A stretch of 59,328 nt of DNA, counting the filler, from Bipalium vagum (lineage: Eukaryota): assembly GCA_037834085.1 (NCBI GenBank). It is 3 parts of 3 records of this genome, joined end to end, with 100 filler letters (N's around TTAATTAATTAA, not from the genome) between each part and the next. Parts side by side here need not be neighbours in the genome. Positions count along the whole stretch, not along the records: positions 20,331 to 40,899 come from JBBMKC010250042.1; 2 more parts are not named here. One strand, given 5' to 3'. A model generated the notes under the pieces. It had not been told where the DNA came from. It worked only from the letters and a program-made list of their open reading frames with translations, and made no database searches. Shown here in pieces: positions 1-56,150 of this stretch (its first letter is position 1; each line of letters opens with the position of its first letter). Made by a program: the position numbers and the translations under genes.

Positions 1-479
1 CATAGCTGTAGAATCACAAAAGTTGATAAAGCCGATAGTCAAAACCAAAATAAAATGAAACTTTCCAATTCCAATTTTTGTAAAAGCATTTTCTAATGAC
101 AGCATCGTAACTTTCAACAGACCAGTGTTCAATACTTCTTGTTAAATGGTTCTGGATTTATTTCTATCATAAATAATGTTATAAAACAAGTGGGTTTGTA
201 ACTGAAGATCTTTCTCAGTGATCGTTTTTAGGTAGTTGGTTTTAATATATGATAGATGTTATCATAATTATTTCAAATCATATTAATATATCATTGCGAT
301 TTTAAAATCTTTTGAGGGTTATAAAATTAATAATAATAATAATAATAAATGAGTCCTTCATATTTCACAGAAAAAATATTGAACATATTGTTATCAAGTT
401 TTGGGTGTTCTGCATATATTATGTTAACATGAAGAAAGGATATTTGATGCGTCTTCAAGATTGATCGGCTGAAGCTTTG

Positions 480-700
480 ATTCTAATAATTACATAATGA
501 ATAATTCTTGGCAGCACTATTCATTTTGACATGTGACCAGCTTAAAAATAGTGCTGTTTACTGCATTTGAAAGTGAATCATAAAGAAAATTTCGTTGATC
601 AAATTCCCCAAGCGTGCAAAAATCATGCGGAACTATTTTGGAGAAACACCAAATATATTAAAGTGTCCAGCAGTGATATTTGATTAAGTCATTTAGATGG
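480..700 (+). mobile_element. possible hAT transposase C-terminal relic
   Basis: KFPKRAKIMRNYFGETP loosely resembles the hAT dimerisation motif FPxLAxxARxYL; heavily decayed, no termini found. Confidence 0.25.
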
Positions 701-2199
701 AGCTTGTTATTGGTATTGGTTCGAAAAAAGAACAACAGATAGTAATGATTTTTTTATGTATCGCATAAATATAACATGTCCTGTTATAAATATATGTAAA
801 ATCTACTAATTTTTAAACCAATGGGATGCCCTCAAAACCCCTCTCAAATTTCAAATTTTAGTGATAAGAAAAATTTAATGTATTATTTTAAAAAGAAATC
901 GATTTTTATATTTATGAAGCACAATTAAAATTATTTTTTGGTATTCTTTTTTACCTAATCTTAAGCATCTTATTTTAGCATATCCAAACTTTTGTCAACA
1001 TTCAGTAAAAACTCAAATTTTTTCAAAATTTATCACCAAATTAAAGTAGTAAGTTCTGGTGATCTCTTAATATCCATGATTTCAGTATCTCTGATTTTTT
1101 AATATTCAATTGATTTATCTTTAATGAAAGTTACTTTAAGCGATTTTTACTTTACTTCAGATGAGAAAACACCGATAATATACCGTCAATATATCATAAA
1201 AAAGACAATTTAATTATTTCTGTTAATATTAATTTAATTAAATATCCGAATAAAATCACCTTTTTACACAAAAACTGTTGTGAGCAATTGCTCAACACAA
1301 ATTCGTTAGAATTTAAAATTGCAGTAAAAAACCCAAACAATCTATCCCTTTAGAAAATGATAAAGGGTCAATTATCCTGATTAGTTAGATATGAATTACC
1401 CTAACATCTTTCCACTTAACAGATGCATTTTAAAATAATTGTTATAATTTTAAAAGATGTAGAAATGTAAAAGCTTTTAATTTGTTTCTCTTCAAATATT
1501 AGCTCATTAATATATCATTTTTAGGTAACATTTGGCTTAATTAGTTACACCAACACCGAACTATGACTGTAAAATAATTTTTGATTTAAATTTCAGAATA
1601 AGGTCAAATTTAATATAAATAAACAAATAATTTCTTAGTTTCAATATTAATTATGAATCAATCATCAAAAATATAAGAAGTATATAAAGGTTTTTGCAGA
1701 TAATTATAGAAAAATATTCAAAATAATTATAATTCTATGCAAAATAATAAGAAAATAATGACTAAATTGAATATATAATTAGTTTAATAAATAAGTAAAT
1801 ATTGTTTATTTTATATTTTCCTTATTCTTAATACTCAATATTTTATATTGTCATTTAACGTATTGCTTTATGACAAAACATTATTAATATTAAAAATTTT
1901 TATTAGAAATGAAGAAGTGAAAATGAATAGGTTGGATAATATATAATTTTAAAATTTGATATTCTGAATATTAGAATCAGTACTATTGAGCTGCAATTAT
2001 GCATATGTCAGGATCTACACAAAGTAAGAAAAATTTTACTTTCGCGAAAGCACGAACCTTAGATTTGGAGATCACTACGGGCTAATTATGATAATAATAA
2101 TAATCATCATCATAATCAATATAATATAATTAAATAGGTTTTAAATAATGTTCAATATTTAAGTATTAAATTTTAAACCTGACTCCAACTCTTAGGTGG

Positions 2200-3097
2200 T
2201 GCAAAATAACAACAGCTAGTGAAGCAATAAATTGTATTTATATCAAAAATGTCTAAATGTTAGCAAATGTACTATTCAGTCATTCTTGGCAAGTATTGGC
2301 ATCAGAAAGTTATGCTCACTATTCGTGCCACGTTTTCTAACTGCTGATATGCAAGATTACCGTATGGAGTGCTGCAAACAGAATCTGGAAACTTTACAAC
2401 GTGTTGGGGACCACATGCTGGATAACATCATCACGATGGATGAGACGCTTCTATCTCTCTATATTCCAGAGTTTAGAAGGATATCAAAAGAATGGAAACT
2501 TTCTGAAGAGACCAGTTCAAGAAAGATGAAGATATCATCACACAAAAAAGCCTTAATGTTCTCCATTTTTTTGGGATGCTAATGGAGTGATTCTCCTCGA
2601 TTTTTCTCAATCACGTGTTCGTCTCAATAGTGAATACTATATCAACCTTGTGCGACAAGCTATGACACTGAGAAGGAAGTGTCGAGTCTCTGAATTGTAT
2701 TATCTGCATGACAACGCACCTATTCAAACTAGTGGATTGTCAACAACAACAATTAAGGATTGTGGCTTGATTTTGCTCTTACATCCTCCCTACAGTCAGA
2801 CTTGACTCTTCCGATTTCTTTTTGTTCAAACACGTCAAGCGTGAACTACGAGGTAAAAATTTTTCGTCAAAAGATTATTTGCAGAAGACTGTAACTGATT
2901 ATCTGAACGACACATCTCCAAGCTTCTTCAAAAATGCATTCTCGCAACTTTTTACTAGCTGGAAAAAATTTCTTGGCGTTTCTGGGAACTTTATTGAAAA
3001 CTAATTACCTGTACATATTCATTGTTATTAATACAAATTTTTTTGTGATAATTTCTTGTTTTCTACGATAGGCTCTATACTTATTTGGCACACTACG
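2200..3097 (+). mobile_element. mariner (DD34D) transposase pseudogene with 3' TIR
   Basis: Frameshifted ORFs with FVPRFL, ITMDET, HDNAP and HPPYSQ; ends ...ttatttggcacactacg-TA. Confidence 0.9.
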
Positions 3098-3319
3098 TAT
3101 TTTATTGGGAAAATAAGTAGTAATTCATTATAATATTAAACCATCTTCAAGATAATGATTTAATATCAAAAATGTATATTTTTTTCAAAAAAATTTTAAA
3201 TGCTAGAAAATACAATTAAGGTCTTTTAATAAGATAATAACACCGAATATGGTTAAATATCACAGCTAGTTATTGTTATAACCAACAGTTCATAATAAAT
3301 CTTAATAATAATTATTATA

Positions 3320-4295
3320 CATTCTTTTAAGAAAAAAGTATACACCACGATATTTGTCCAGCATGACCTAAAATTTATAGTAATAAGACACATTCATGCA
3401 AAAATTTTATTTCAAAGACATTAACACGATAAATGAAATATACAGAAATAATATTATATACGATTTAAACGTTAGCATTTAGTATATCCACCTTTTACCG
3501 CTATCAGCGCCTGTATGCGACTTGGTATAGAACTCGAAATCAGGTGTAATTTCTTGGTTTCAGCACTGAAAAAACGCAGAATTCAGTTCTTTTTATCTCC
3601 ATAATTCTTGAAGAGCATTCGGTTTTGTACAATGTGACACATGCTTTTTATGGGATTTAAATCCTGTGAATTTGGCGGAAAATCCATGACAGTGATGTGA
3701 TCCTTGAAAAGCCAATCCGGTGTAATCTTGGATTTATGACACTATCATTGTTTTGTAAAAAAATTGCACCGATAATACTGGGGAAAAGATTGTGGATGGT
3801 TGGAATTAATTGGGTTCTTAGAATGATAATGTACGTTTCAGAATTCACAGTATTTTCAATACGACTGACACGACCTGGTTCTCTTCCACAAAAACATGAT
3901 CAAAACATTAAACTAGGAAAAAAATTTTCAGTTTGTGTCACAGAAGAGTCCAACCATTTTTCTCTGTCTTCCATCCATAGTTGAACATCACTGTCATTGC
4001 CAAATACTAAAATGTTCTTTTCACTGAACCATAGTTCACACTGAAATTTCTGGAAATTTCCCACAAAGAATATCCTCCTCTTAATTCAACCACCCTTCCT
4101 TTCATAAATTCTGTTAAATGTTTGCCGATCTTTATAAAATAAATAGATTATTAACTGTCTAAAATGAGAAATACATATAACCTAATAATAGAAATCAATT
4201 CATTATATCAAATATAAGACAGAATATGCATAGAAAACATTAATCATAATTTTATGAAAAATGGCATTGTGTATACTTTTTTTCTTAACAGACTA
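3320..4295 (-). mobile_element. internally deleted Tc1-like element with both TIRs
   Basis: Imperfect TIRs cattcttttaagaaaaaagtatacac / gtgtatactttttttcttaacagact, TA at left; minus-strand remnants MNSETY..L..IPT and IFLQNND. Confidence 0.8.
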
Positions 4296-4449
4296 GAATC
4301 AAAGTAATTTTATCTCGCCGTCAATATATTAAAAAATAAATTTTCGAATTAATGAGCTATTAAAGGAAATAGCTTTCCAAACGTAGTCTGGCAGTAGCAG
4401 ACCAATCTCTACGGCTATATAAGGTAAAAATTTCAATAAGAAATTCGTC

Positions 4450-4790
4450 CAAAATAAGATTTCGCAAAGATTTTTTGTTCTCGTTCAAGATGATCAATAA
4501 GAAGATTATGTACATTTTTCTTCAATCATCAAGAGAGGACTGTTAGATCTGCACTAGGAAATTCTTCCATACCCATTGTACTTTCTATGTATTGTGTCAA
4601 TATATTTTTACGTATTCAGGTCAATGGAACATTCTCTAGAAGACATGCAATTCAATTCATATGAAGATGTTCAACATTTGGTGACCAATTGGATTTATTT
4701 TGAAGAAAAATCATTTTATCACTAAGAAATATCCATGTTATCATGTGATTTTTAACAATGGAAAATACTTTGACTGATTTTAATGTTTTA
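4450..4790 (+). mobile_element. mariner transposase C-terminal fragment
   Basis: VFRSMEHSLEDMQFNSYEDVQHLVTNWI is typical of the mariner C-terminus. Confidence 0.7.
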
Positions 4791-6924
4791 TTTCCATAAA
4801 CTAAATATTAAGAGTTTTTTAAAAACTCTAAAATTGATACACTCTTATTGTTTTTTAGATTTTAATAACATAACTTTTAGAATATCTTTTGTCGATCTAT
4901 TAAGTCAATATTGAATTTAATTCAATCATTTCGTAGTTAAATCATGTCTTTACACTTGTCTTTAACTCAAACCAGATCTCTCCATTAACTTTAACTGCAC
5001 GATTAGATGTCTTATAATAAATTTTGTTCATAACTACTTCAACAGAAATGTTTCCGATTCTTGGTTTTGGGAACTAATAAAGTTGCAGGAGCACTCAGTA
5101 ATTTTCTTCCTATTTTTGATCGAGTCCTTAAAATTAAAGTTCGAGTAAAATTAGAAATAATTCAATTTCAGTAGTTTGCTCCAATTGACGAAATCATTGA
5201 GAATAACTGAATCTTTTTTGAACTGTATGATCATTGTTTTGGAATACAGGAACAGACAGTCTAAATTGTGTAATGGAAGTTACAAAATTGAAGTCTTTGT
5301 TGAGGTTGAAACAGAATTACCAAAATAGTTTAGTACAATCAAAGATAAATCATTGAAGGTTAGTGGATTATTTTCATCTAATTAATTTTCAATGTCCATT
5401 TTTTACTTAATAGATAATTTATCACTATATTTTCCTTTTCTTTTTTATTTGCTTTGTCTTTGTCATTAGAAAAGACCCTTGAATGCTAGAGATTTTGCAA
5501 CCATCTTTTAATATGAAAAGTCACACGCCTTCTCAATTCAAGATTTACAGGTATTCTTTGGATTTTCTGTGTAGAATGTTCTGTCTTTTCCTCTTGCACT
5601 TTATTTGATTGTTCGGTGTTTTTCTCAGAATTAAATGGATGACAAAAAATTGTAGAAGAATGATATGAAATTCGATAACGTTAGAGCATCTTGCATAATC
5701 TTTTTTTTTACTATTTTATGTATAAAAAATATGTTATATTATTTTACAGATTTTATTAGGGATGCTAGATGAAATGAATTTTTAAAAAAATAAAAAAATT
5801 CTTTTATCAGATGTTTTAGCAGTCTAATGACTGTTACTAAATCAATTGCACTTGTGAAACAATTAAGACTCATTAATATATTTTTAAAATTTAATTTAAT
5901 AAAGGTTTTTTATCCTTTACAATTTAGGTACTGAAAATAATATTTAATTATTTTAAAAATTATAATATTTTTAATAATTATCAATTTAATAATTATAACT
6001 AATTGTTATGATATTATTAATCGTCACCGTGTTAAAAACTTCAAAATGTTTATTATCAAAGTATTTTTTAATGATTTCTTTTTTTCACATTTTAAGAAAC
6101 ATTGGTTGACTTTTATTATAAAATTGTGCAGGGGTGAATATTATCTGTTAAAAGATTGAATTACAACAAGAGAGTCAAGTTATTTTAAAAAAAATTAAAA
6201 CCAGATTATTGAATTTTTAAAAAAAATAATTTTATAAAAATTTCAGTTCAAATTTAATAATGGAAAAGTAATTTTAAAAAGCAGAAGTAATTGCCATGAA
6301 ATAAATTTCTTCAAAATTTTTAATTAATTTAATTTTTGTCAGTTCGAATATTATTTTATATATTATTATACTCTGATGTAAAAGTAAACATTAAATATTT
6401 TTGCAGACTAAAATTTTAGGAAATACGAAGAAAATCTAATTTATTTAACTCACAAAATCATTTATGATCAAACGTTGTCGTAAATATGTTTTCTAATTAG
6501 AATATTTATACAGATCTTTTTAATCTAACATTTTATGTCCTCTATAAATTTACATTCTTCTTAAATTTAATTTTCTAAATTAAAAAAAACATCTGTTATA
6601 CTAAGATTATCATTTTAATGTTTTCATATTTTGGTTAAAAATATAAAAATTAATTTTATATTATTTATTATTTATATTTACATTATTCTGAATTATCATA
6701 TTATTAAAATATTTTCTGATTAAGAACACTACTGGTTAAATTGGGCATTGAAATGAATTTATTGATTTTATTCAAATAATTAAAAAATTAAAACAAATTT
6801 TTTTTCTTGTTCTTATATCAATAATTTATAATTATCATTTAATCGAACCATTGCTTTAAAATGTCGATAGATTTTATAAAAAGTTCTAAAAGCGAATTAA
6901 ATTAAAGAATTAAATTTCAATTAA

Positions 6925-7862
6925 AGAAGAACGTGCCTTGGTTCGCACAAGTCTCAAAAATCGGCGTCTGACATCCTCTGAACTAAAAATGGAATTTAAC
7001 AATTACTATGGAGTTTCTGTAACAGCGGCAACCGTGAGAAATTCTATGTTCCGTTAATATGGATTGCGTGGCTGTGTGGCTGTCAGAAAGCCACTGTTGT
7101 CAGAGACTAATTGCAAGAAGAGATTAGCTTTTGCTCTCAACCACTTGTCATGGAGGTAGACCAATGGAAGCACATTCTTTGGAGTGTTGAGAGGTGGTTC
7201 GAATTATTTTGTGGAGATAAACGCATCTATGTATGAAAAAAATGAAAAGTACTTACCAGCATGTATCAATCCAACAGTAAAATTTGGAGGAGGCTCTCTC
7301 ATTGTATGGGGATGCATGTCCTTGGCTTGATTTGGTCGCCTATTCCACTGCACCGAGATTATGAATCAACATTTGTATATAGATGTTCCGAAGAAGCACA
7401 TGTTGCCATCTGCAAGAGAGTTATTTGACCGTAATAAACCATTTATCTTTCAGTACGACAATGCTGCAAGTCATAAGGCCAAACTGGTCACTGACTTTCT
7501 TGCTCGGACACCTGGAAAATTAGGATTGGCCAACCCAAAGTCTAAGCTTAAATCCCATTGAGCACCTATGGAATATTATCATTAGGAAGATACAAGGAAA
7601 GAAACCAAGCAGTCTAAAGTAATTATTTAATGAATTAAATAAGGCTTGACAGCTCATCACTCCAGAGGAAGCCCGCAACTTGGTGGAGTCCATGCCATAG
7701 CGTATACGGGCAGTAATTGCATCCATAGGTCTACAAACAAAATATTGACGGTGCATGCGAAATTCCAGTTTTTATGTATACGGATATAGCACTGTTTAAT
7801 TTTAATTATATATTTTTTTTATTATTTTGATTATTTGGTTTTCTTTAAAAATTTGCACTGTA
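6925..7862 (+). mobile_element. Tc1 (DD34E) transposase pseudogene
   Basis: RKPLLS..KKRLAFA, WKHILWS, PTVKFGGGSLIVWGCMS, FQYDNA, NPIEHLW, LVESMP.RIRAVI; ends gcactg-TA. Confidence 0.92.
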
Positions 7863-9090
7863 TTTCTTTAGATAAATTATAAAATCACCTGATTTGCAAT
7901 TTTTGTGATGTGGATAAAAAGTTCTTAGACTCATGTAGAAATAAAATGAAGTCTATGAAAATTTTTACATAAAACAATTAATATATATAAACAAATATTA
8001 TTGAATTTGTGGAGCATCTCAAAATAACAACATTTCATAATGAACAATTATTTTGTGATTTTTTAAATTTTATTTTTATCTTTGTAATATGGGATCATCA
8101 AGACAAATATAATAATAATTATTAATTTTATTATTTATTATTAATTACTACCAAAAAATAAATAAAAAATGGATTTATATAGAAAATAAATATGGAAAAT
8201 AGAAATTATTATGAACAGAAATAAATGTAAATAAAATAATATTTTACTAAAAATAGAATTAAGGCAAATAAAATTATATGAATTTCTAAAAATAGAAATG
8301 AGATGTTTCTAAAAATAGAAATTACAGAAAAAAATTGTATATAAACCAAAGAAAAATAGTAAAACGACACACAATAATTCTCACCAAGAGCTCAGTAATT
8401 TACACAGAGGACTCTAAAAGAGACAAGCGATTTCAAGCATCACAATAAGGATAAATTATTCTAGAAAATTTCAAAGACGTGGTGGACCAATAACATTTAC
8501 AAAACTTAGTAAGAAATCTTTATTCTCATTTTATAAACTCTACGAATTTTCGTAACAGCAGTTTATTTTAATCTTAAAATATATTATTTATTATCAAGTA
8601 ATCTTTACCGATTGACTTGATATTATTATTATTATTATTAACTAAACTCTTCTAAATAAGTGCTTGAAGCTTTTCGAGAATCAAATAAAGTTTATCTTTT
8701 CCTTTTTCTTCTTTTTTATTTTTACAATTTACACAGCCGCTAGCTGGTAAATTGCTGAGAACTTTTGAGCATTAAACTAAGTTTGTGCCAAAAGATATCT
8801 GTATTTGATAATCCAATAACGTGTTTAATTGTAAAAACCAGATTTGCAAATAAATATTTTATAAAAAACATTTTTGTTCTCTCAGTTCATTTGAATTTTT
8901 ATTTGATCGATTATTGTGACAGTGATTTTTAGTTTTTGTGCCTGAACGTTCATCCGTAAATCCTTCTGATATTAAATACTTTGTTAAGTAACCTAAAAGC
9001 CCAATTTCGGTATTTTAAACTTAAAATCAGCCACTTTTTAGGAACTGAACAAATCTGTTTTAAATAATAACCGTTTAATGATATTATTTA

Positions 9091-16281: not shown

Positions 16282-17340
16282 TTAGGTACCGGAATACTTA
16301 ATGTCGTTTTTTCATCAAGAGTTTCAAACGAACGATGTTTTTATTCAAGTACAGACAAATCAAACAATATAATCATCAATTGTTTTAACAACTGTTTCCC
16401 ATCTATCTATAAGAGAAAAAATCCCTTTCTCAAAGAACTCGAGTGACCTGGAGTCATAAAGCAGACAGATCACTTTTGACCTGATTTTCGGAATGGTATT
16501 TTTTACCCGATAAAAATCTGACATTGACAAGAACATAAAATGGTTAGTAGAACTAATGTCCGGGCTATATGGTGGATGATGTAAAAGGTCCCAGCATAAT
16601 TGACAAATTTTTTCTTTAGTCATTTTTTCAGTATGAGGTTTGTCGTTATCATGAAGTAGTATAACATCTTTTTGATTGACCAATGCCGGCTCGGTTTCCT
16701 GTAATTTAGCGTGGACAGTATATATTTCAGCATATTATGTCTTCTTTAATTGTCTGACGGGGTGGTAAATAATTTAGGTGAACAATGCATTTATAATTCC
16801 AATGTAGGTCTTTTTAGGGACATATTCATGGGGAACTAATCTTTTTAACCTACGATGAGGGTTTGCGAAAGTTGTTATCCAAGACCCATTCCTCATTAAA
16901 ATTAATTATTTGTTTTCAAAAAAGTCGCTTGTTGTAGCAAAATTGAACAGATATGGAATCGTGTCATTTTATTTGCAGGTGTAAATTGTTCAGGAAGCGA
17001 TTGATCTTTTTTTTTTGCAATCAAGCTCATGAAGCCGTTTTTGTACAGTCAACTCATCACACTCTAACTGCTCTGCAATTTCAACAAAAGTTTTGCAAGG
17101 CCCACTCTCGATTAGTTTAATTAAGTCTGTATTATTGAACAAAATTGATTGTGATTCCCTAGAAATGTCTTCATTGCTTTCATGAAACCTCTTGAACCAT
17201 CTTTGAGCGTCTCGAATGTTAATGGCACCTTTCCAAACCCTAAATTAATTCGTTTGACGGAATCTGTGGCATTCAGACAAACTTTGAAGTCGGAAAGAAG
17301 GCAGGTACGAATTTTAATATTTGACCTTGGCATAATCTTT
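16282..17340 (-). mobile_element. near full-length mariner pseudogene
   Basis: N-terminal IRTCLLSDFK..NATDS; LHDNDKPH, HPPYSPDISST, GIFSLIDRWE; TIR TA-ttaggtaccgg at left. Confidence 0.9.
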
Positions 17341-18599
17341 GCTAAAAAAATAATAAATAAAAAGGATATAATTAAAAATTTTAAATGAAATCATTTTAAA
17401 AAATGCCAATGTTTAATAATCAAACAAGATTATTTAAACAACACTTTATATTTATAATAGAAAATAGTCATCATTAAAATCAATTAAAAAAATGTCATCA
17501 AGTATAAACTATTATTAATATATCAGAATTTATTTATATTTGAACTAAAACCAATTTCTTAAATTGGAATTTTAATTATTTAATGTATAAGTGAACTATC
17601 AAATATTTTTGGTAATTTTTGTCTCGATTATTTTTTTTTGAAAAACTATATATAATTTTATGAAATATATATCTGATTTCAGAGCTTGTTATAAATATAA
17701 ATATAAATATAAATTGAATATAATTATAATTATAATTATATAATAATAATTATTATATTAATTATATAATATATAAATATAATTAAAAATTATATAAATA
17801 TTATAAATTAATAATTTTATATTAAAATTAAAAAATGTAAGATTTTTTCCGGTAAAAATATTTTATTGAATATCGATTGATATCAAAATTTATATTTTGT
17901 AAGGTTTATTTTTATAAAGGTATATTTGTTTAAATAATTTGTTAATAAATATAATGTTTATTAAAACAAAAATGAAATTGCAATTTAATCAAATTATGAC
18001 TCCATTTCAGAAATAAACGAACATATTATGAATAGTAATAATTAGTTTTATTGTTTTGTTCATTTGTTTTAAAACATAACCTTTAAACAAGTTAAAGATG
18101 CAGTTAGTGATATACATAGTAGATAGGTTGTACTACATACAGATTTTTATTGCTCCCTCCTATTACCACTTATTTTGTTCCGCACAAAATTTTCTTACTA
18201 GTAAGCAATTTAATAATAAATAGTTGCTAAAAAATGCACTGACAGAATTATTTCAATGAAAATTACAAGAATTCTACAGCAGAGGAATAAAGGTGCTACC
18301 TGAACGATGGTTTAAAGTGACTGAAGACAACGGAAACTATATTGTTGATTAAATTCTGTTATTTGTATTAATAAATAATTTTTTTAACATATTCGAAACC
18401 GATATTAATTAATACTAGTCCTGATATATACACTTTTCATTGACTTTCAGTTTTTCTGACTAGAAATAAAGACAAAATAAAATTTAAGTCACTAGTAAAA
18501 CTATTAAATAATTAAATTGTTACAAATTTGTCTCAACTAATTTTCCAAACATACGTGAAAGTTGTTTACCATAATTTTTTGGCAATATGCTTCATCTCT

Positions 18600-19270
18600 A
18601 TTTCTTTAGCCGAATAACAGTAATTGAAACAAGTCCGCTGTCAATGGTTTGCTGGAAATGATTCCGTGGAGTTTGACGATGTTGTCAACGATGCTGTCCA
18701 GTGACAGAAATTATCTGCCTTGTGGTAGACCGGTCGCTAATTACATTGTCATTGATTTTCCCTATCAGAGCATACTCCCTCACAGGCAAATGCACACACA
18801 CGCACTTCCTTCTGCCACACGCACACACAACCACACAAATACACAGCTCGAGAGAGAAGCGTGTACTCAATCATACAACTGCCTTGGAACACACACACAA
18901 TCACACATCCCTATACAAATTACAATATGGCCAGTTAATCAACGGTTTCTACAACTGTTAATCCTCGTTTGTTTCCCAATTATTATTATTATTATCATGA
19001 TTATTGTTTTCATTATTCCATCTGGTTGTTGTTGCTGTCGTTGTTGTTGATGTTGTTTTTATTGTTCTGTTTGCAAATAGTGTTTTCCACAAGTCCACCA
19101 ATAACAACAATATGCTTTCTCACTAAAACTGTCATATCGAAACAAAGCTGCCAAAGCGCGTTCCTATTCGTTCTTTAATTAAAAATCCTCATATGTTTTC
19201 ATTGTTCAATATATTTTAACGCAAAACTTAATCCAGTAGTTCTATTAATTTCCCATAATTTCCAATTGAA
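18600..19270 (+). promoter_or_regulatory. probable promoter/5' UTR of the protocadherin
   Basis: Locally GC-richer and TE-free, with CA-rich and TTG-rich tracts directly upstream of the ATG. Confidence 0.45.
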
Positions 19271-20086
19271 ATGGCACAGAATAAATGTGCACTTTTGTTC
19301 AGTATTTGGATAAATTTCCTTTTGTTTCCTGTTGTGTTTTCCCGATTTGAAGCCAATCTCAATTACACGATTCATGAAAACCACCCCTCCGGTATCCAGA
19401 TAGGGTATATATCGTCGGACATTATGCACATTCCAAATATTAACCTACCTAAATTTCTCGATTCCTCTTATGTTTTCATGCTCAGAGACAAGAGTGAGTA
19501 CTTCAGCTTGGATTCCAAATCGAGTGTTCTGAAAACGACGACGAAAATCAATCTGGAAGTTTTATGTCCGAAATTCTGTAACGATGAAGGAGTGGGGTTC
19601 CTATTTCTTGTTGTCAATGTTTGGAAGGAAAATCAATTGTGTGGAGTTATTAATGTGAAAATTGTTATTCTGGATCAAAACGATAACATTCCACTGTTTC
19701 CCATCAAGATTTTTGAAAAGAAAATCAAAGAGGTTCTCTATGGAATTGGCAAGATAATTGAACTGCCAAAAGCAATTGATAAGGATGTTACGGAAATTAA
19801 CAGTAGAGTATCATATAAATTAGACAAGCCCTCTGATACTTTCAATCTTCAAGTAACAAACGACAACAATCCGCGATTAGTACTGAAAAAGGAAATGGAT
19901 TATGAAGCAAAAAATCTGTACGAATTAACTTTGCTGGCGTGGAATCCGGCCCAGTCTGATGTCAAATCCTATCTTCAAATAAAAATCCATGTCATTGATA
20001 TCAACGATTGTGAACCTGTCTTTAAAAAGAGCATCTTTGAACTAATGCTGGATGAGAACGCACAAATTGGAAAATTGATAATAAAA
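19271..20086 (+). CDS. Pcdh: protocadherin first coding exon (signal peptide, EC1, EC2, start of EC3)
   Basis: Hydrophobic signal peptide; motifs IHEN, DQNDNIPLF, AIDKD, MDYE, DINDCEPVF, LDEN; EC1 cysteines (INLEVLCPKFC); phase-0 donor AAA|GTAATT at 20086/20087. Confidence 0.9.
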
Positions 20087-20142
20087 GTAATTGTATAATT
20101 ATTTTTAATTAATTAATAAATTACTAATTTATTAATTTCGTG

Positions 20143-20330: not shown

Positions 20331-20476
20331 ATATGCATAAAAATTATCATTTGTATATATAAATAAATTTTTTGTATAGCGTTTCTATTTCATTGGCCAC
20401 AACTGTACATTACTTTTACTATTGAAATACAATTATGATAATATTATCATAAAACAGAAATAATATGTGAAATTAC

Positions 20477-20755
20477 CTTGATTGCATTGGATCCGTTTTC
20501 ATTTGTTGATGGTGAATTGCTGAACCAGTTACTATTATTATTATTGTTGGTACTTGTTCCAGACCGAGAATAGCCTGCTGAGAAACCGTTTATAGCGGAC
20601 TTGAAATTTGATCTGGAATTAGCACTGGTCACGTTATTATTATTATTATTATTGCTATTGTTGTTGTAATGTGGTATCGAAGATTGATTAGAATTCGTAT
20701 TTCTCGATGTCAACTTTGCTACTTTCGCGTATGATTTTGAATTAGCAGGATTTGA
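20477..20755 (-). CDS. exon of N/S-rich protein (putative YTHDF-like N-terminal region)
   Basis: Acceptor TTTTCTAG|, donor AAG|GTAATT, 279 nt open frame SNPANSKSYAKVAKLTSR...NGSNAIK. Confidence 0.7.
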
Positions 20756-20819
20756 CTAGAAAATGAACATAATGAATAGATTTTTCTGCTTCATTAAGTT
20801 TTGTTTTGTAATTCCTTAC

Positions 20820-21146
20820 CGTCCGATTGATGTCCTGATTCCAGAAATCTGAATTTTCACCTTTGTCCATTGGGCACTGTTTCGATATTAATGTAAGAGA
20901 ATAGTTCCTTTGATTATTATTAAGAATTGACCCTTGATTCGGCTCAAAATTAGAGCTGTCTTTGTGGATTGAACAATCGTTAGTCAACTGAGATTGCAAA
21001 GCGTCCATTTGTGAATATACATTATATGAACTGGAGGCCGCCGAAAATTTCTTATCTTGATTAATGAAATTATCTGATTTTTCTACAACTGTTCTCTCAA
21101 CATTCATCATGTGTGAATTATCATGTGGAACTCTTGTAGCTAACTC
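20820..21146 (-). CDS. exon of same gene
   Basis: Acceptor TTATCTAG|, donor ACG|GTAAGG, 327 nt open; 64-bp phase-0 intron to the next exon. Confidence 0.72.
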
Positions 21147-28000: not shown

Positions 28001-28319
28001 AGATCAATATTAATTAATATTCAATTTTTAACAATATCACAAATATTTATTGGAAATAAAATAAACTGCTTAAATTCCGAAAGGAAAATTAATAGAATTA
28101 TAAAATGCAATCAAACGAAATAATTCATTTCGAGAACGAAATATGCAGCGCACTTCATTTTAATGAATAATATTACTAAGTTCTGTAACTCTCAACGAGA
28201 ACAAATCGACATTTTATGATTAATGGAAAGACTGACTGTGAATCATAACCGAATAAATGGGTTTTAATTATATCACTAATTATATCATTTTACAAATAAC
28301 ATGTTTCACAATCGCTTAC

Positions 28320-28636
28320 CAGTCCATTGGAAATCTGATATCCGTTTTGAAGAAGATGTTTTTGGTGGTTGGCCTGAATATTATTGATCGATAGAATCTG
28401 ATTTGCTTGTTCAATGGGTGAAATTGTCGTTTTATAATTCATTGAATTCGATAGAGAGGGATATTGACTGTTGAAAACGCTTTCCGACCAGGATTGAGAC
28501 TTTTCGACAGGCGGGAGCGAATAATTTTGGTTGGGAGATTTGTATTCCACCATTGATGGGTGAGTCCAGTACATATTATTAGCTGCCCCGTAACCATATT
28601 GATAGAATACATTTTGATCTGTTGCCTGCGGAGGTC
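28320..28636 (-). CDS. exon of N/Q/S/Y-rich protein (putative YTHDF-like)
   Basis: Acceptor TCCCAG|GA (phase 1); donor CTG|GTAAGC (phase 0, compatible with the 21146 exon); could instead read through to a stop at 28290. Confidence 0.75.
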
Positions 28637-28779
28637 CTGGGATAGTTTTTAAATGATTAAAGTCGGTTTAAGTTAAATGGAAATAGAAAGAATAGATTTG
28701 TGTTTTAAAAAAATAATAATTGAAATATAATAATAGAAAAAATGAATATAAAAAATTTCGATATTTTATGTTGTCTCAC

Positions 28780-29035
28780 CGTGCGAGGGGATAGAAAAAA
28801 AATGAGCAGTGTTAGGATCAATGTTTTGCGCTTGATTGCTTCTGGTCTGTGCAGCATTGATCGGAGTTGTGTTCCACATATTAGGATGATTGTTTGCATT
28901 TATACCATCTCCAAGACCTTGATTATCACTGTATTGAAATGAAAATTGTGTCGCCAGTAACTGATTTGGACCGTATGTATTGTGTAATTGTGCAAAATCC
29001 TGACTGATACTAGGAGTATTGGGTATTCGATAATA
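28780..29035 (-). CDS. exon of same gene
   Basis: Acceptor ATTAG|TAT, 256 nt open (YYRIPNTPS...FSIPSH), donor G|GTGAGA; 143-bp phase-1 intron. Confidence 0.75.
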
Positions 29036-29167: not shown

Positions 29168-30654
29168 CTACATTCCAAAAATTATTGTAAATATCATTTT
29201 ATAATTTCAAATAAAAATAATAATTAAACCAAATATTCTTTAATTTAATCACTTAAAATATGATAAATAAAACTTATATTTATTTATTAATTAAAAACAA
29301 AGTTTTACAAAAATTATTTTATAAATCTAATAACACACGAACTTTAAATTTTTTTATTTATGTATACAAAGTTTCAGGTAGGACAAACAAGATATTTAAT
29401 GTTGTATGTAATATATTTTACTTTTAATTCTAAAATTCAATAACAATTTTTGAAAATCATTTTAATTTATTTTAAAATTTTTAAAATAAAATATATTATA
29501 TTGCTTCTGATATATTATCTCTAAATATTTTCAAATATAAAACTTAGAATAAAACTCATCTTACTTTGATTTTGATTGAATTTTTTTATTCACTTTAAAA
29601 ATTTTGTACATGACAATTTTTGATATCTTCAGACAATAAATGAACCAATTTCTTTAAAAATTAAAAACAAAATTCTAAATTCTTGGCAGTCTATTGAGGA
29701 CTCCAATGTCTTTAATACTGATCACGCGACTACGCAGTCGTAGACTAGTATTCTTAATTGGGAATGTCAATTCCATTTTTAAGCATCTACTGTAAAATCT
29801 TTCTATAATTGCGAACCCTTTTAATCTTGGCAATTCGACATTCGACATTGTCAAGATTAGACCATCAAAGATTAAAAAATATCTTATCATTATCATGATT
29901 CATTATTATAATTATTTTTTGTACTTTTAATTATATTATAATAATAATTATTATTATTATTTAATTAACATTTTTTTGAATTATTATTATATACTATTCC
30001 AGACCCTTTAGCAGTCTTTATAATTAATTTATTATTTTAATATTATTTTAGACCCTTCATCAACCTTACAATTCAAGGGTTAAAGAAATTTGTCTTTGAC
30101 CATACAAACAATATTAATTATCGTCATTCCTACTATATTAAAAAATCTTAACTGTGTTACTATTATACTTAGACGTTGTAACGTGTAGTCGTGTACTCGT
30201 AACTTCTCAATTTTATAAAATGTTGTGTCCGTCCCTCTCAACCTTATCTGAATCAAAGCACCCACAATAATACTGTATCTGCACCCTAAGAACTGAATCA
30301 AATCGTCCACAATAAAACTTTATTGATAAAAAACACAATCCCTAATATACTGATCACCACCTAAAGTCTCTAATAAGTCCAATAACTGAAAAATGTCACC
30401 AAAAATAAATAATGATAAAAATAATCAAAACTATTGCTATAATGAAAGAGATGAAAGAAATGATCACGAAAGAGAGTTTTAAAAAATAACACAGAAATAA
30501 ATAAATAAAACGATCTCACCAAGAGCGACAAGGGGTCCCCGGGTCGTCTTCTTGACCTTTCTCAGGTCGCCTAGGAGTTTCCAAGCTCGATGGGTCCCCT
30601 TGTAAAATCAGTTTGCATAATCGTGGTGTTGAGAAAAAATAATTACTGGAATCG

Positions 30655-30775
30655 TCCTCGGCCAATATCCTGGAACCGTCCTTGCGGAAATATCCTTAGA
30701 AATGTCTTTAGCAAAAAAAATATCCTTGGAAATGTCTTCGACAAAAAAATTAAAATATTCTTGATTGTCTTTCTG
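30655..30775. repeat. degenerate ~30-bp tandem repeat (core aatatccttRgaaatgtctt)
   Basis: Three to four imperfect copies seen. Confidence 0.7.
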
Positions 30776-31574
30776 GACGTATTTTCTAATCCATTTCTGG
30801 GAATAGCCGTCTCTTTATTTAGTCTTAGAGATTTGCCTACGATCACTAATTCCTACACTTAGAGACGGCTATTCTCCCTAATAGCCATTAACTCTATCTC
30901 CACGCCGAGATAGAGTCAGATCAATGCTAATGGAAACCTGCAGTCCACTCGAAAACGACTGTCAGAGAATATCTAATATTAGCTAATATGTCAAAATCCC
31001 AATGACGAGATTTTGACAAGGCTTTTAAGAAAATATTAAAAAAATTTCTCTGAAAAAAAAATTATTATTATTATTATTAATTAATAATTCTTATTATTTT
31101 TAATTCTTATAATAATAATAATAATTATTAATTCTTATAATTATTATTAATAATTCTAAAACCCAACAATACTCCAGATTTACAAAGATTCGAACCTCTG
31201 AATCTTTAATAATTAACAAATTTTTAACAAAATCACGATGTTTGTTATTAATTGTTTTGATCAAATCAATCCCGCTTCTCCCTCGATGTTCCAGAACATT
31301 GGTTTTTGGCTCTTGCTCATTCCAGTTCCATCTTCGGATACAATTTCAAAATCTATCTCTCTCTGTTATTTGCTAACGGTTGTATTTCTGTTAGCAGCTC
31401 CAAACTCGATAGCTTCTTTAACTTTCTTCTTGTATCTGTTCTACTCTCTCTTCTCCAGCACTTCATCATATGGCAACATGACACTTCTACTGGCATTATG
31501 ATTAATGGCTCCACAAGTTCCTGTGGCCATAATCCAATTGGTCATTCTCTCATCTGTCTCCCTTTCTAACTTTT

Positions 31575-31790
31575 GTTTTCTCCAAATAACCAATAACTCG
31601 TTTGTGTACTCTTCGGTTCTCCTCAACTGAACGTTTACCACTGCACACTTATAACTATAAATGACTTCCCCCACCATTCTTGAAAGACTTCTTGGTCTGG
31701 TTACAACATAGGCGCTACTAGCTCTGAGTTGCTGATTATCATGGTACATTTCTCTCATTGAATACTGAATATGGTATACGAAATCAGATT
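31575..31790 (-). pseudogene. fragment of chuvirus-like (class III) viral fusion glycoprotein
   Basis: SDFVYHIQYSMREMYHD and AYVV...VGEVIYSYKCAVVNVQLRRTEEYTNELLV resemble recalled chuvirus G blocks in the same order. Confidence 0.6.
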
Positions 31791-32715
31791 CCTTGCTGAC
31801 GCGGTGTGTTTGGATCCTTCCTTGGTCTTCCAACAGGATTATTTCCTGGTCTTGCTTGTTGTGGCCTGGATTGTTCTGGCTCTATGATTTCTGTTGATAA
31901 TTCGCCAGTCTGAACCTCTTCCCTTGATTGTTCTAGTGTGGATATTCCTCTGGCTCCTCTAATATCTTCGTCGGATATTTCATCCAAAATTACTGAATCT
32001 GGATCACCCACTTCGGCCCTTAATAATTCGGTAGTGTTCTGCATTGTTTGAAGTAATTCTCTATTTATTAGCCCGTCAAGTTCAACAGCTCATCGTAACC
32101 GCTTCTTGCAAGTCTTGGCAGTTCAAAATGATCTACTTGCACTGCCAATAATATTGTTTCTTCAACCGCATTACACCCATAATCTATTAGATACTCATCA
32201 TCATCCAACTGATAAATGCTCCAAAATATTGCAATAATCCATTTTTGACCCATCGTCTGAATTGCTCTTTCCCTTACTGTTCTCACTCTGGCACAATAGT
32301 GCAAACTGAACTCTTGGTCCATCCATCCAAGCATTTTCAGTCTGATTTTAATCGGTCTGTGATCTACCCCTCTCAGCCGCATGGATCTTCCGTACCTTCT
32401 TACTAGAGCTCCAAATTCTGTTATTCGGGGCTTCATTAACTTTACTATTTCAGGATTTTCTTGGTCTATATCTACCAATGCCATATAAAAAATTACCGTT
32501 TGTATCCACTCTTTCTTCCAAAGAATCCTTCCTTGATAACACTCTGATTTCATTGTTTTGCGATCTCACCACGGATACTTTTTCATATCCAGTTACTCTG
32601 GCCAATTGGCTTCTGAGTTCATCATTTTCTATTCTCAACCTTTCCGTTTCATCTTCATCCTTCACATCTCGTAGAGCATTTACTTTTGCATTTCCAAATG
32701 CCAATCTTTTAACAA

Positions 32716-32867
32716 TAAGGACTTCGTGCCATTCAACTTAAATGGATCGGTAATCTCCTCACCATCCGAGCTTCATCATATCCCAATGCTTCGGCTACCT
32801 GTCTGTACTCGGCCATAAAATCCGCGACCTCCGTTGGTTCTCCACTAAACACTCTCACCGGTAATTT
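32716..32867 (-). pseudogene. gag: retrotransposon Gag capsid N-terminal fragment
   Basis: KLPVRVFSGEPTEVADFMAEYRQVAEALGYDEARMVRRLPIHLS*MARSPY fits F.G...F...A.......L.G.A; the Gly position is TGA at 32733-32735. Confidence 0.8.
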
Positions 32868-34479
32868 TCATAATCCGTGACTTCTATTCTTTTTGTTTCC
32901 TCTGAAATAATTCTTATTATTCTTATTCTTATTATTAATTCTTATAATTATTATTCATAAATATAAAACCCAACACCTGAATAGCGTTATGTTCATATAA
33001 TTACTTCAGAGACCACTTACTGAGCTAATTGTCTTAAGCTATACTGGGTTTTAGGTGATTAGCTTGAGTGCTGATTTCGTTATAGGTCACTAAAGTAAAT
33101 TAACCTCTGATCCCTAAAAGCTGATAATTAATTTATTATTACTTTTAGCTTATTTCTTAATACTTTATGATCTCAATCTATCATTTATTTTTATTTAAAA
33201 TTAATTTTACTTGTTTCTTTTAGTACTTTATTTATTACGAAAATCAATTAGATATTACTTAGATTAAATATACATTTATTCATTCACATAATTCCTAAAG
33301 ATTACATAAAATAAAAAATTTTTAGATCACTGAAATAATGAAATTCACTTGTTACCTGAAAACTAAAATTATTAAAATAATTACGTAAGTTAAATAAATT
33401 CACAAATTAAGTTCAAATGTAAGCAAATGAAAGAGTAAATGTCTTTTTTCTGGAGAACTCTCTACATCAACATCTTGACATGATTTCCACACTGTTAATA
33501 AGGTAGTATTTTAGATAACTAAAATCCCACAGTGACAAACACCGAATAAATGACAGACACAATCATCCTGGCACAGCTCCAACTACGGTGACGACGACGA
33601 CACAGCCACTGCCGTCGCATAGAAATAACATCAGTCATAGAATGACAACAGTATAGGCATTCAAACAGCAAGGTCAATAGCAGTAACACTCTTATTTGAT
33701 TAATAATTAAAATCATGAGGGAGAAATATTCCAGGTTGGTTCTTGATAGAAGAAAAGAAAATTCAGCTAAAGAAAATAAAAGATCTAAAACTAGAAAAAG
33801 TTTATACTCAAAATAAATTCACAGGTGATTTTTCATTAAAATTTTTGTTTGGATATTTATAATGTTATAATATAATTATTTATATGTAATTAATTTTTAC
33901 TAGAAGAATAGGTATTGATAAAGCTATATTTTATGAAACAAATGTAAATGAAAAAATAAAAGTAATTGATATAAAATAATTTATTTCAGAATTTAAAATA
34001 AATACAAAATCAGAATTAAAATAATTAAAGAGAATTGAGAACCTATAAAAACAAATTTGTGAAGAAAAATTTTTAATAGAAGGTAAAACACAAACCTAAC
34101 AATTATTAAATATTCCTAATAAACTAATTTATATTTTTATCGCTTTTAAAGAAACATATTTTGATTATTCAAGATAAAATAAAATGTTGAAGAGTTGAAG
34201 TTAATGATTCTAATTATCCCCTAAATTCTAAATAATTTGTAAAATTTGTTTTATTGATATATATACTAAAACAAGATTATTGTGCTTAAAATAGTTCATG
34301 TAAAGAATGTGAAAAGAGATATAATAAAATAAGAAATCCTATATATTACCAAATTTATAAAGAAAAAAGAATTTTGTCTAAAATAATCCTAATCATCAAT
34401 TTAAAAAAATTATTCAAAAAATTATTTAAAGGATTATTTTTTATTTTTTGAATTTAATTTTGATAAAAATATGAATTGA

Positions 34480-36536: not shown

Positions 36537-37017
36537 CTATGAAAAGTAAATTTTTTTATTATATCTCGTTTTAGATCAATTTGTCTAAAATATTAAAGAA
36601 CTTCATATTACTACTTTCTCGAAGAATGATTATAGAAAGATTAAAAATCTTATTTGGTTCTCTCAAAAGTAATCGGGGTTTTATAAAAAGAATATTTACA
36701 GATTATTTAAACAGCAGACATCACTGATTTTCACCGTTTTATCCCATTTAAAAAATAAATTTCTTTTATGGAAATATTATCAAGCTTATAAGGACCAATT
36801 CTCTCTTGACTAATAAATATTTCATTGAATTGCAAATGTGGTGAGAAAAAATGTGTAAGAAGGTGTAATTGAAAAATATTTTTAACTGTCCAATTTAAAA
36901 TGACGATGAAAGTATATTAAAATCTGAGAAAAGAGAGATATCAAAATTCTTTATTATTAAAGGATTTAAAATTTCATTTTGGTAATCTGAATTCCCATAT
37001 ATATATATATTAATTAC

Positions 37018-37299
37018 TTGCTGGTTCAATATTTGATCTTTTAGGTGCTTCGTAATCATTAACCTCAGACTTTTCGTGTTTATCGTGTTTGTTTAATTTC
37101 TGAGATCCATTGGGTTGTTTTGGGCCTTTTCCTTTCGGTCTTACAGATTCAGTCGGTAACACTTTTCTTCTCTCTTTTGGCAGTTTCGATCTTGCCTGAG
37201 TGTGAGAATAAAATGTTGAGAAATTGTTCACAATAACTGGAACGGGTAACGAAACAGTGAGCACACCGACTACTGCGCATAGGGCTCCCACAATCATTC
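37018..37299 (-). CDS. Shaw: voltage-gated K+ channel Shaw/Kv3, S6 and proximal C-terminus exon
   Basis: [48 protein letters not shown]; acceptor TTCAG|, probable donor |GTAATT. Confidence 0.92.
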
Positions 37300-37659
37300 C
37301 TGAATGAATATGTTTTTTAAAAAAGTTAACAATTAATTTTTTAAAAAAATCTTAATTTTTAAATGTTAGCTACGCATTATATTTATTTAATATAATTATA
37401 TCATCTTCATCGTTAAGTATTATGATTTTTCCTAGACGTTTCCAATAAATGTTTAGTACTCTATAGCCTTTCTTATTCATCTAAGAAATGTTATCATTTA
37501 ATATTTATAATTAGTGATTGTTTTATTAAAGTAATTAAAGAAATTTTTTATCGTAGATTTTAAATATCCGAAACATATTTTACGATTTTTTTTATGGTGG
37601 TACTTTTATTTCTTTTAGATTATTGATGACAAATTTGCTCTCAGTAAATTGGTTCCCTT

Positions 37660-38240
37660 GTTATAAAGGCTTTAGTCCAAAAACAACAACAGATGAAATT
37701 TGTGCTCGTCAGCTTAAAAACTGTAAAGAACTGGTTCAAAAGATTCAATAATAGAAACACAAACCTCGATGATCAATCACAGTTTGAGCTAACTACAATT
37801 GTGGATTCCTACGTCGTATGCCAGGCTAATCCAAGCGCATGTATATGCAGATTATCTGTAAATCTTCCTAAGTCAAATGCAACCATACAACGAAATCTGT
37901 AGAGCTTAGGAAATTCCTTTATCAACTGGTGCAAGCAACTGCTGGACGGCCAAGACCGCAAGTCAGACATACAGTTGCTTTTGATCAAAACTGGATATTC
38001 TTCCGTAGTCCAGTTACAAAAAATCACTGATTAGTGATGGCTGCCTCACCAAAATCTGTGGTCAAACAAGGAATGTTTTGAATAAAAGGTCCTGCTGTTT
38101 ATATTTGTTGGAGTTTAGAGGGTATCCTTCACTTTGAGCTAGTTCCAGATGGACTTGCTATAGACGACAACCTTTATTCAGAGCAACAAGAAAGAATAAA
38201 TGAAGTTCTGTCCCAAAAGAACCAAGCTCTTATATAATCT
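37660..38240 (+). mobile_element. decayed mariner fragment
   Basis: TVKNWFKRFN..TNLDDQ; WSLEGILHFELVP. Confidence 0.75.
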
Positions 38241-55049: not shown

Positions 55050-56150
55050 TTAGGTCTACAAATATGACTCCGCCGTTTTTATTTTTTATAATTAAAAATA
55101 AAATGAAATTATTTTTTGTATATTTGTTTTTGTTTAAATAATATTTACTATGAGCGCTAATTATAATAATATAATAATTTTTAAATAGTTTGCACATCAT
55201 TAATTATTTGCTATTTTAGATGACAACATTTGTGCCGAAAAATAACCATTTGTGGGAACCTTTATTATTTTGATTTAATTTAAAGAAAAATGCTGCCGAA
55301 GCGTATAAATTACTAGTACAGGCTTATGGCAACAATTCTTTAGCTGAAAGAACATGTCGGGAATGGTTTTGAAAATTCAAAGCGGGCAATTTTAACCTTA
55401 ATAACAATGCCCACGGAAATCCACCAAAAAAATTTGAAGACCCTGATTTGCAAGACTTGTTAGACGAAGACGACTTTCAAACTCAGGAACAATTAGCTGC
55501 TTCATTGAATGTTTCCCAACAAACAATCTCCAATCGTTTACGCGGTTTAGGAAAGATTCTAAAGGTGGGAAAGTGGGCGTCTCATGCATTAACAGAAAGA
55601 AGCCAAGAGCAGTGAAAAACCACATGCGAAATTTTGATTAAAATGAACAAAAAAAATCTTTCCTTCATCGTATAATAACTGACGATGAAAAATGGATATA
55701 TTTCTTCAATCCCAGACGATAAAGACCTTGGGTTGATCCAGGTCAGCTGACAAAGTCAACTCCAAAACGCAACATTCATGGAAAAAAAATATTGTTATGC
55801 ATATGGTTGGATCAAAAAGGTATCCTGTACTAAGAACTTCTGAAACCTGGTGAAATCGTAACTGCCAATCCCTATCAACAGCAGTTAATGCAACTAAACG
55901 AAGAAATCGCTGCCAAACGACCAGAATGGGCTGATAAACATGGGAGGATAATATGCTTCATGACAACGCTCGGCCTCATGTCGCAAAAACCGTTGATGAG
56001 GCTATAAAACAGTTGAAATTGGATGTCTTATCCCACCCGTCATACTTTCCAGACATTGCTCCGTCGGATTATCATTTATATCGTTCGATGGCACATGGTC
56101 TGTCAGGTTTATGAGAATGTAAAAAAATGACTAGATCATTGGATTGCCTC
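55050..56150 (+). mobile_element. mariner pseudogene (mauritiana/Mos1-like)
   Basis: FVPK...FNLKKNAAEAYKLLVQAYG...TCREWF, ITDDEKWIYF.NP, HDNARPHVAK, HPSYFPDIAPSDYHLYRSMAHGL; 5' TIR TA-ttaggtctac. Confidence 0.92.

Follow-up and report, generated by a model that had tools for sequence, protein, structure and literature searches.

Does a short coding-like stretch on the minus strand, near the middle of the window (the whole 59,328-nucleotide stretch of DNA analysed here), preserve the remains of an enveloped retroelement and, if so, of which kind? The initial annotation had read it as a gypsy-type gag linked to a chuvirus-like class III fusion glycoprotein, left by an internally deleted gag-pol-env copy. 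With a probability of about 0.7, we favour a gB-type env fragment in a likely heavily deleted, dead env-bearing Ty3/gypsy LTR element, probably of the flatworm gag-env-pol kind. The features concerned, in the order of the minus strand, are as follows.

32900-32975, minus strand: upstream direct-repeat copy, AT-rich, with a TG start; likely a truncated 5′ LTR, 58/68 bases identical to the downstream copy
32716-32867, minus strand: gag-capsid-like frame with an internal stop, a putative label proposed from its motif
32450-32737, minus strand: charged coiled-coil-like open frame, 95 aa; weak coiled-coil-type Pfam matches, E at least 0.014
32068-32565, minus strand: open frame, 165 aa, no family
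31784-32089, minus strand: open frame of 101 aa, acidic and rich in proline; it closes with GRPRK (31831-31817), followed by a stop at the env start; no Pfam match
31744-31791, minus strand: env piece A, start of the gB-type long central helix; of 761 ungapped placements tried against a profile of eight glycoproteins, the top two fall at this helix; within the HH-align match
31686-31745, minus strand: env piece B, shifted to a neighbouring frame and interrupted by one stop codon; 11/13 residues agree with the N-terminus of protein P0004
31576-31683, minus strand: env piece C, a GE..C..V..R.T..E block; identified by PF24664, P0004 and HMM tests
31262-31575, minus strand: tail after env, 104 codons with two stops, no significant match
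31048-31168, minus strand: downstream direct-repeat copy, where the 3′ LTR likely starts, pairing with 32900-32975
30627-31047, minus strand: possible rest of the 3′ LTR, GC-raised and non-coding, with a hairpin, an AATAAA and, at its end, a 7-base imperfect inverted copy of the repeat start

The sequence around these features is that of an AT-rich animal, as shown by a GC content of 27%, by a protocadherin-like exon, by exons of a GPCR and a potassium channel and by mariner relics. This content fits a flatworm host; to our knowledge, protocadherins are absent from insects and nematodes.

19259-20098, plus strand: protocadherin-like exon (Pfam profile match)
20447-21146, minus strand: low-complexity coding stretch, no family; on the opposite strand to the cadherin exon, and after 20098 in joined-window numbering only
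28290-29035, minus strand: low-complexity coding stretch, no family
37010-37351, minus strand: voltage-gated (potassium) channel exon of the host
42017-42454, minus strand: rhodopsin-type GPCR exon of the host
2223-2805, 16360-17390, 37648-37902, 45086-45250, 46317-46565 and 55373-56004: decayed mariner/Tc1-type transposase pieces

Rfam and ARAGORN scans gave nothing significant.

The env-like peptide lies where it had been placed, at 31791-31576 on the minus strand, and its identity as a fragment of a chuvirus-like class III glycoprotein is supported by Pfam, by P0004, by HMMs and by HH-align. The comparison with viral glycoprotein profiles that the initial annotation had called for returned PF24664 (Monjiviricetes fusion glycoprotein) at E=0.001-0.002, with E=0.002 for the env-like frame and E=0.0011 (17.5 bits, under the curated gathering cut-off of 27) for its 36-residue core. 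A search of 1.84 billion protein representatives yielded two matches. The first, P0004, is a 53-residue fragment that scores 34 bits against PF24664, above the curated cut-off, and is identical to the env piece at 22/34 (65%) and 11/13 residues; the second, P0003, consists of a five-fold repeat, and its match was attributed to chance. Eight full-length natural glycoproteins were gathered by a DNA pattern and alignment search, the corrected pattern giving five loci, of which three were real and two due to chance. When an HMM was built from three natural glycoproteins, the env piece came out on top with 10.7 bits, a score attained by none of 20 locally shuffled windows (maximum 7.7), and with an HMM built from eight it scored 15.3 bits (E=4.4e-4), the runner-up in the set of 1584 chunks reaching 5.0. 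Furthermore, HH-align matched the piece over 72 columns, with a probability of 86% and E=5e-6, to residues 315-409 of the env of the natural contig L002. On these sequence comparisons, we judge the env match to be beyond chance.

Searches for closer homologs were less productive: the env piece alone gave 46 candidates, none of them a homolog at E up to 1, the env piece together with P0004 gave 127, again with none, and scans of viral contigs with the window env piece found nothing. The only metagenome locus among 20 candidates, L001, proved to be a false match, having a 9-residue word in common with env within a gene that we take to be glutamate-dehydrogenase-like. This bacterial gene (L001 9518-10936) passes tblastn at 5e-4 through that one word, a trap for short-word searches.

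The window piece is too short to fold, and the class III assignment of its family is a modelled one: as predicted for the full-length relative L002, the env family has a herpes gB-like fold. The structure modelled for L002 env (mean pLDDT 62.8, pTM 0.33) matches herpes gB with a Foldseek E=1.1e-13 and superimposes with a Z of 10.0 and an rmsd of 9.6 over 396 aligned residues. Herpesvirus glycoprotein B thus has a predicted fold in common with the env family, although identity is ~10-13% even to the intact relative. The part of L002 env to which the window piece aligns is a long helix with strands after it, which we take to be gB domains III-IV.

The env stretch had been described as a single reading frame, a description that does not hold, as its middle (31745-31686) sits in a neighbouring frame. 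Piece C keeps four of the seven positions that are invariant in the eight relatives, while piece B found no correct placement on the profile of the eight more distant glycoproteins alone. Between the beginning of the helix and the GE motif, the window has 37 codons versus 59-60 residues in the eight relatives, leaving it ~23 codons short. In total, ~70 codons survive of a ~650-residue protein, about a tenth, and the eight-protein HMM detected no further part of the env gene nearby. Because the remnant comprises ~70 codons only, spans two frames, contains a stop and misses ~23 codons, the window env is non-functional; an intact ectodomain (domains I-V), a signal peptide and a membrane anchor are all lacking from it. 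An env N-terminus near 32250-32180 was considered and dropped, the HMM giving no match there. The word ESDF at 31791, which occurs in two of six Schmidtea envs, was considered as a domain I motif and set aside, being a post hoc choice that the helix register explains equally well.

The charged tail, which the initial annotation had attached to env, has no homology support as a part of it: its best matches, DUF7034 (E=0.16, Pfam) and phrog_21968 (E=0.04, PHROGs), are not significant. Positions 31460-31390 of the tail, on the minus strand, may resemble the terminal part of a GIY-YIG endonuclease of the Penelope type; as phrog_21968 is the best match and none points to such a family, this likeness is unsupported.

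Upstream of env, the proposed capsid motif is present at 32867-32716 just as it had been quoted, and presumably resembles a gypsy capsid N-lobe. Its gypsy gag label, in contrast, found no echo in any library or search. The 43-residue piece, a diverged query at the limit of these searches with their few animal retroelement proteins, was blank in Pfam, NCBIfam, PHROGs, PDB and the DNA pattern; a homolog search gave ten candidates, none of them a homolog at E up to 10; a pairwise comparison with the third frame of L002 was blank; and a scan for further gypsy elements that could serve as gag references returned L002 alone again. The frame begins ~30 bases past the upstream repeat, the position expected for gag, and env follows ~0.93 kb downstream on the same minus strand.

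Between the two, the 165-aa frame was blank in Pfam, PDB, Atlas, NCBIfam and PHROGs, and its single-sequence model (pLDDT 34.5) is too low for use; the frame may bear a distant resemblance to retroviral proteases. The GRPRK at the end of the acidic frame is presumably AT-hook-like. Atlas gave no usable match for the two frames tried, and PDB sequence searches of window frames were blank or at chance level.

What unites the gag-like and env pieces is that they form one 1.6-kb coding-like block (32870-31262) with 40% GC, compared with 27% in the window, and with 63% purines on its minus (coding) strand. The block is bounded by a pair of direct repeats that the initial annotation had overlooked. 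Both copies open with TG and both reach the same 8-base word. When all ungapped 68-base pairs of the window with a spacing of 200 bases or more are compared, these two match best, followed by ATT microsatellites with 56; the 12-base start alone, at one mismatch, was seen in 25/100 shuffles and is not significant. The terminal direct repeats with TG starts that mark an LTR retrotransposon are found here in the form of the 58/68 pair, with one copy flanking the block on each side. The pair likely represents LTR starts, the 5′ copy being cut short and the true ends uncertain. Inspection by eye revealed neither a primer-binding site nor a polypurine tract nor a target-site duplication, the flanks matching at 3/5 positions under one choice of ends and at fewer under the other; deletion and ~15% divergence could account for this. 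A reading of the repeats as introns was also considered and found unsupported. As an observation in its own right, 32976-32902 and 31172-31050 on the minus strand start near GT and end in TTTCAG, so that each could also pass for an AT-rich intron of short length or for a splice acceptor.

For the downstream LTR we infer an end point at 30627. Within its possible extent, a hairpin with arms at 30801-30814 and 30861-30874 forms a perfect 14-pair stem on the minus strand (z=-4.75, 0/200 shuffles), and the AATAAA is located at its 3′ arm. The hairpin may be the polyadenylation hairpin of the LTR, or a small separate element. The same region holds a 30-base unit twice in tandem (30688-30749), and a second inverted pair, of 12 bases, lies at 30528-30603.

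These boundaries bear on the possibility that a lone glycoprotein scrap of a chu-like virus inserted into, or next to, a retroelement relic to which it is unrelated, its neighbourhood with gag being due to chance. In the sections of Dezordi 2023 (PMC10084718) used here, chuvirus glycoprotein EVEs are indeed often adjacent to fragmentary gypsy copies, with no clear sign of capture, and the chuviruses catalogued include one whose host is a flatworm. In addition, seven of the eight full-length relatives come from contigs that lack pol; a ~2000-aa L-type frame is also present in six of the seven. The window, however, presents one strand, a single composition block and one bounding repeat pair; its env piece is much nearer to P0004 (65% over 34 residues) than to full-length chuvirus-type proteins (30-35% identity by tblastn); and the N protein of L004 has no match in the region. 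We consider such a coincidence unlikely. The glycoproteins and EVEs of Jingchuvirales (PMC10084718) share with the window the block of PF24664, a helix followed by GE..C..V..C..ELP. They differ from it in that identity is 30-35% only, no N or L gene is seen near the window env, and the window has LTR-like repeats.

The preferred reading, a deleted env-bearing Ty3/gypsy element, must next contend with the loss of pol. Across 18 frames, Pfam matched no pol family and hence no RT, RNase H or integrase, the pol of L002 gave no tblastn match in the window at E up to 1, and no pol was found on either side of the gag-like to env order. With RT, RNase H and integrase all gone, we infer both the gypsy label and the gene order of the parent. 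Of the internally deleted gag-pol-env copy first proposed, the deleted LTR-like relic is supported, while gag-pol-env is a candidate order, no trace of pol having been found. The presumed protease likeness and AT-hook-like end would suit a gag-pol-env parent with pol deleted. The flatworm precedent described below suits gag-env-pol, and we place this order slightly ahead. In the L002 contig, a PF24664-family env stands next to RT, RNase H and integrase: along 1-8684 of this IMG/VR contig, pol is followed by an intact env and then by a weakly gag-like frame (PF03732, E=0.11). That order, pol-env-gag, perhaps reflects a circular or tandem form.

The precedent comes from the survey of Chary & Hayashi (eLife, PMC13524379), which sought gypsy elements only and reports 1512 env-carrying ones across animals. 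In the parts of this survey on which we draw, the elements of Nematoda, Bryozoa and Platyhelminthes have gB-type env only, in the order gag-env-pol; nine flatworm families, all gB-type, are described, six of them from Schmidtea mediterranea with 1-215 copies and tabulated without a tRNA primer site; and ENV-POL hits are tabulated for Dugesia, Girardia, Macrostomum, Prostheceraeus and Schmidtea. Because flatworm gypsy elements with gB-type env are thus already described, the novelty that had been claimed for such a combination fails. The independent env capture proposed along with it is disfavoured as well, as the authors of PMC13524379 argue for an ancient origin or association instead. Nothing decisive came from Kojima 2025 (PMC12440569) or from PMC6109357.

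The window copy shares the gB-type env family with the ‘ancient errantiviruses’ with HSV/gB-type ENV (Smed_errantivirus_1-6, Mlig, Pcro; PMC13524379). As in the flatworm GAG-ENV-POL elements recorded there, a gag-like frame stands upstream of env on one strand and the invertebrate host is AT-rich; the six Schmidtea families are, moreover, likewise tabulated as lacking a primer site. However, the recorded flatworm elements are 12-18 kb long with intact frames, whereas the window copy, at ~2 kb, is devoid of pol and retains roughly one tenth of env, and the published flatworm env supplement, in the part used here, covers domains I-II while the window keeps a later part, so that the likeness is one at the level of the family.

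It is improbable that the parent belonged to an uncatalogued gB-envelope lineage, with the 165-aa frame and the acidic AT-hook region as an extra segment between gag and env, or that it was not gypsy at all; a non-gypsy parent, if true, would mean that an envelope had been captured separately, in an animal that is not an arthropod. One such parent would be an Anakin- or Tas-like element of the Bel/Pao kind, or some other retroelement outside gypsy with the same env family, which we regard as quite unlikely. Mosquito Pao elements carrying a chuvirus glycoprotein do exist (Anakin; Dezordi et al. 2020, PMC7642597, in the part used here), the window has the same glycoprotein family in a retroelement-linked setting, and no pol is left that would exclude such a parent. 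Against it, Anakin has a Pao backbone and an insect host, and nothing Pao-like was detected in the window: no Bel/Pao gag or pol family was matched in Pfam, in sequence that is heavily decayed. The capsid motif is presumably gypsy-like. The flatworm gB-env elements recorded in the available part of PMC13524379 are all Ty3/gypsy, in what was a gypsy-only survey, which also reports that the mosquito Bel/Pao chuvirus-like glycoprotein occurs next to gypsy pol. Finally, that the upstream frames are other decayed sequence and not gag, env alone being retroelement or viral, is very unlikely: the blank searches of the gag-like piece and the familyless 165-aa frame agree with it, but a diverged 43-residue query against few animal retroelement proteins would be expected to fare poorly, and the piece sits where gag should begin.

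For the preferred gypsy-type parent, we propose the following history. The intact element would have packed its RNA with Gag, and its Pol would have copied and inserted it. The env trimer would have fused membranes and passed the element between cells, as proposed for errantiviruses. In the window copy, several deletions would subsequently have removed the greater part of both env and the 5′ LTR and everything recognisable of pol, and neutral decay would have followed. No working protein is made from this copy.

The window feature is a decayed copy of an already known element kind and, taken alone, is of little importance, adding one more to those catalogued across animals, flatworms included. 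Its one value is that of a pointer to the past presence of gB-envelope retroelements in this genome; longer copies found in nature may reveal whether the frames intervening between gag and env are regular in the family. With no RNA run among the matches listed, a search of sequencing runs matched two, at shares of 0.38 and 0.08.
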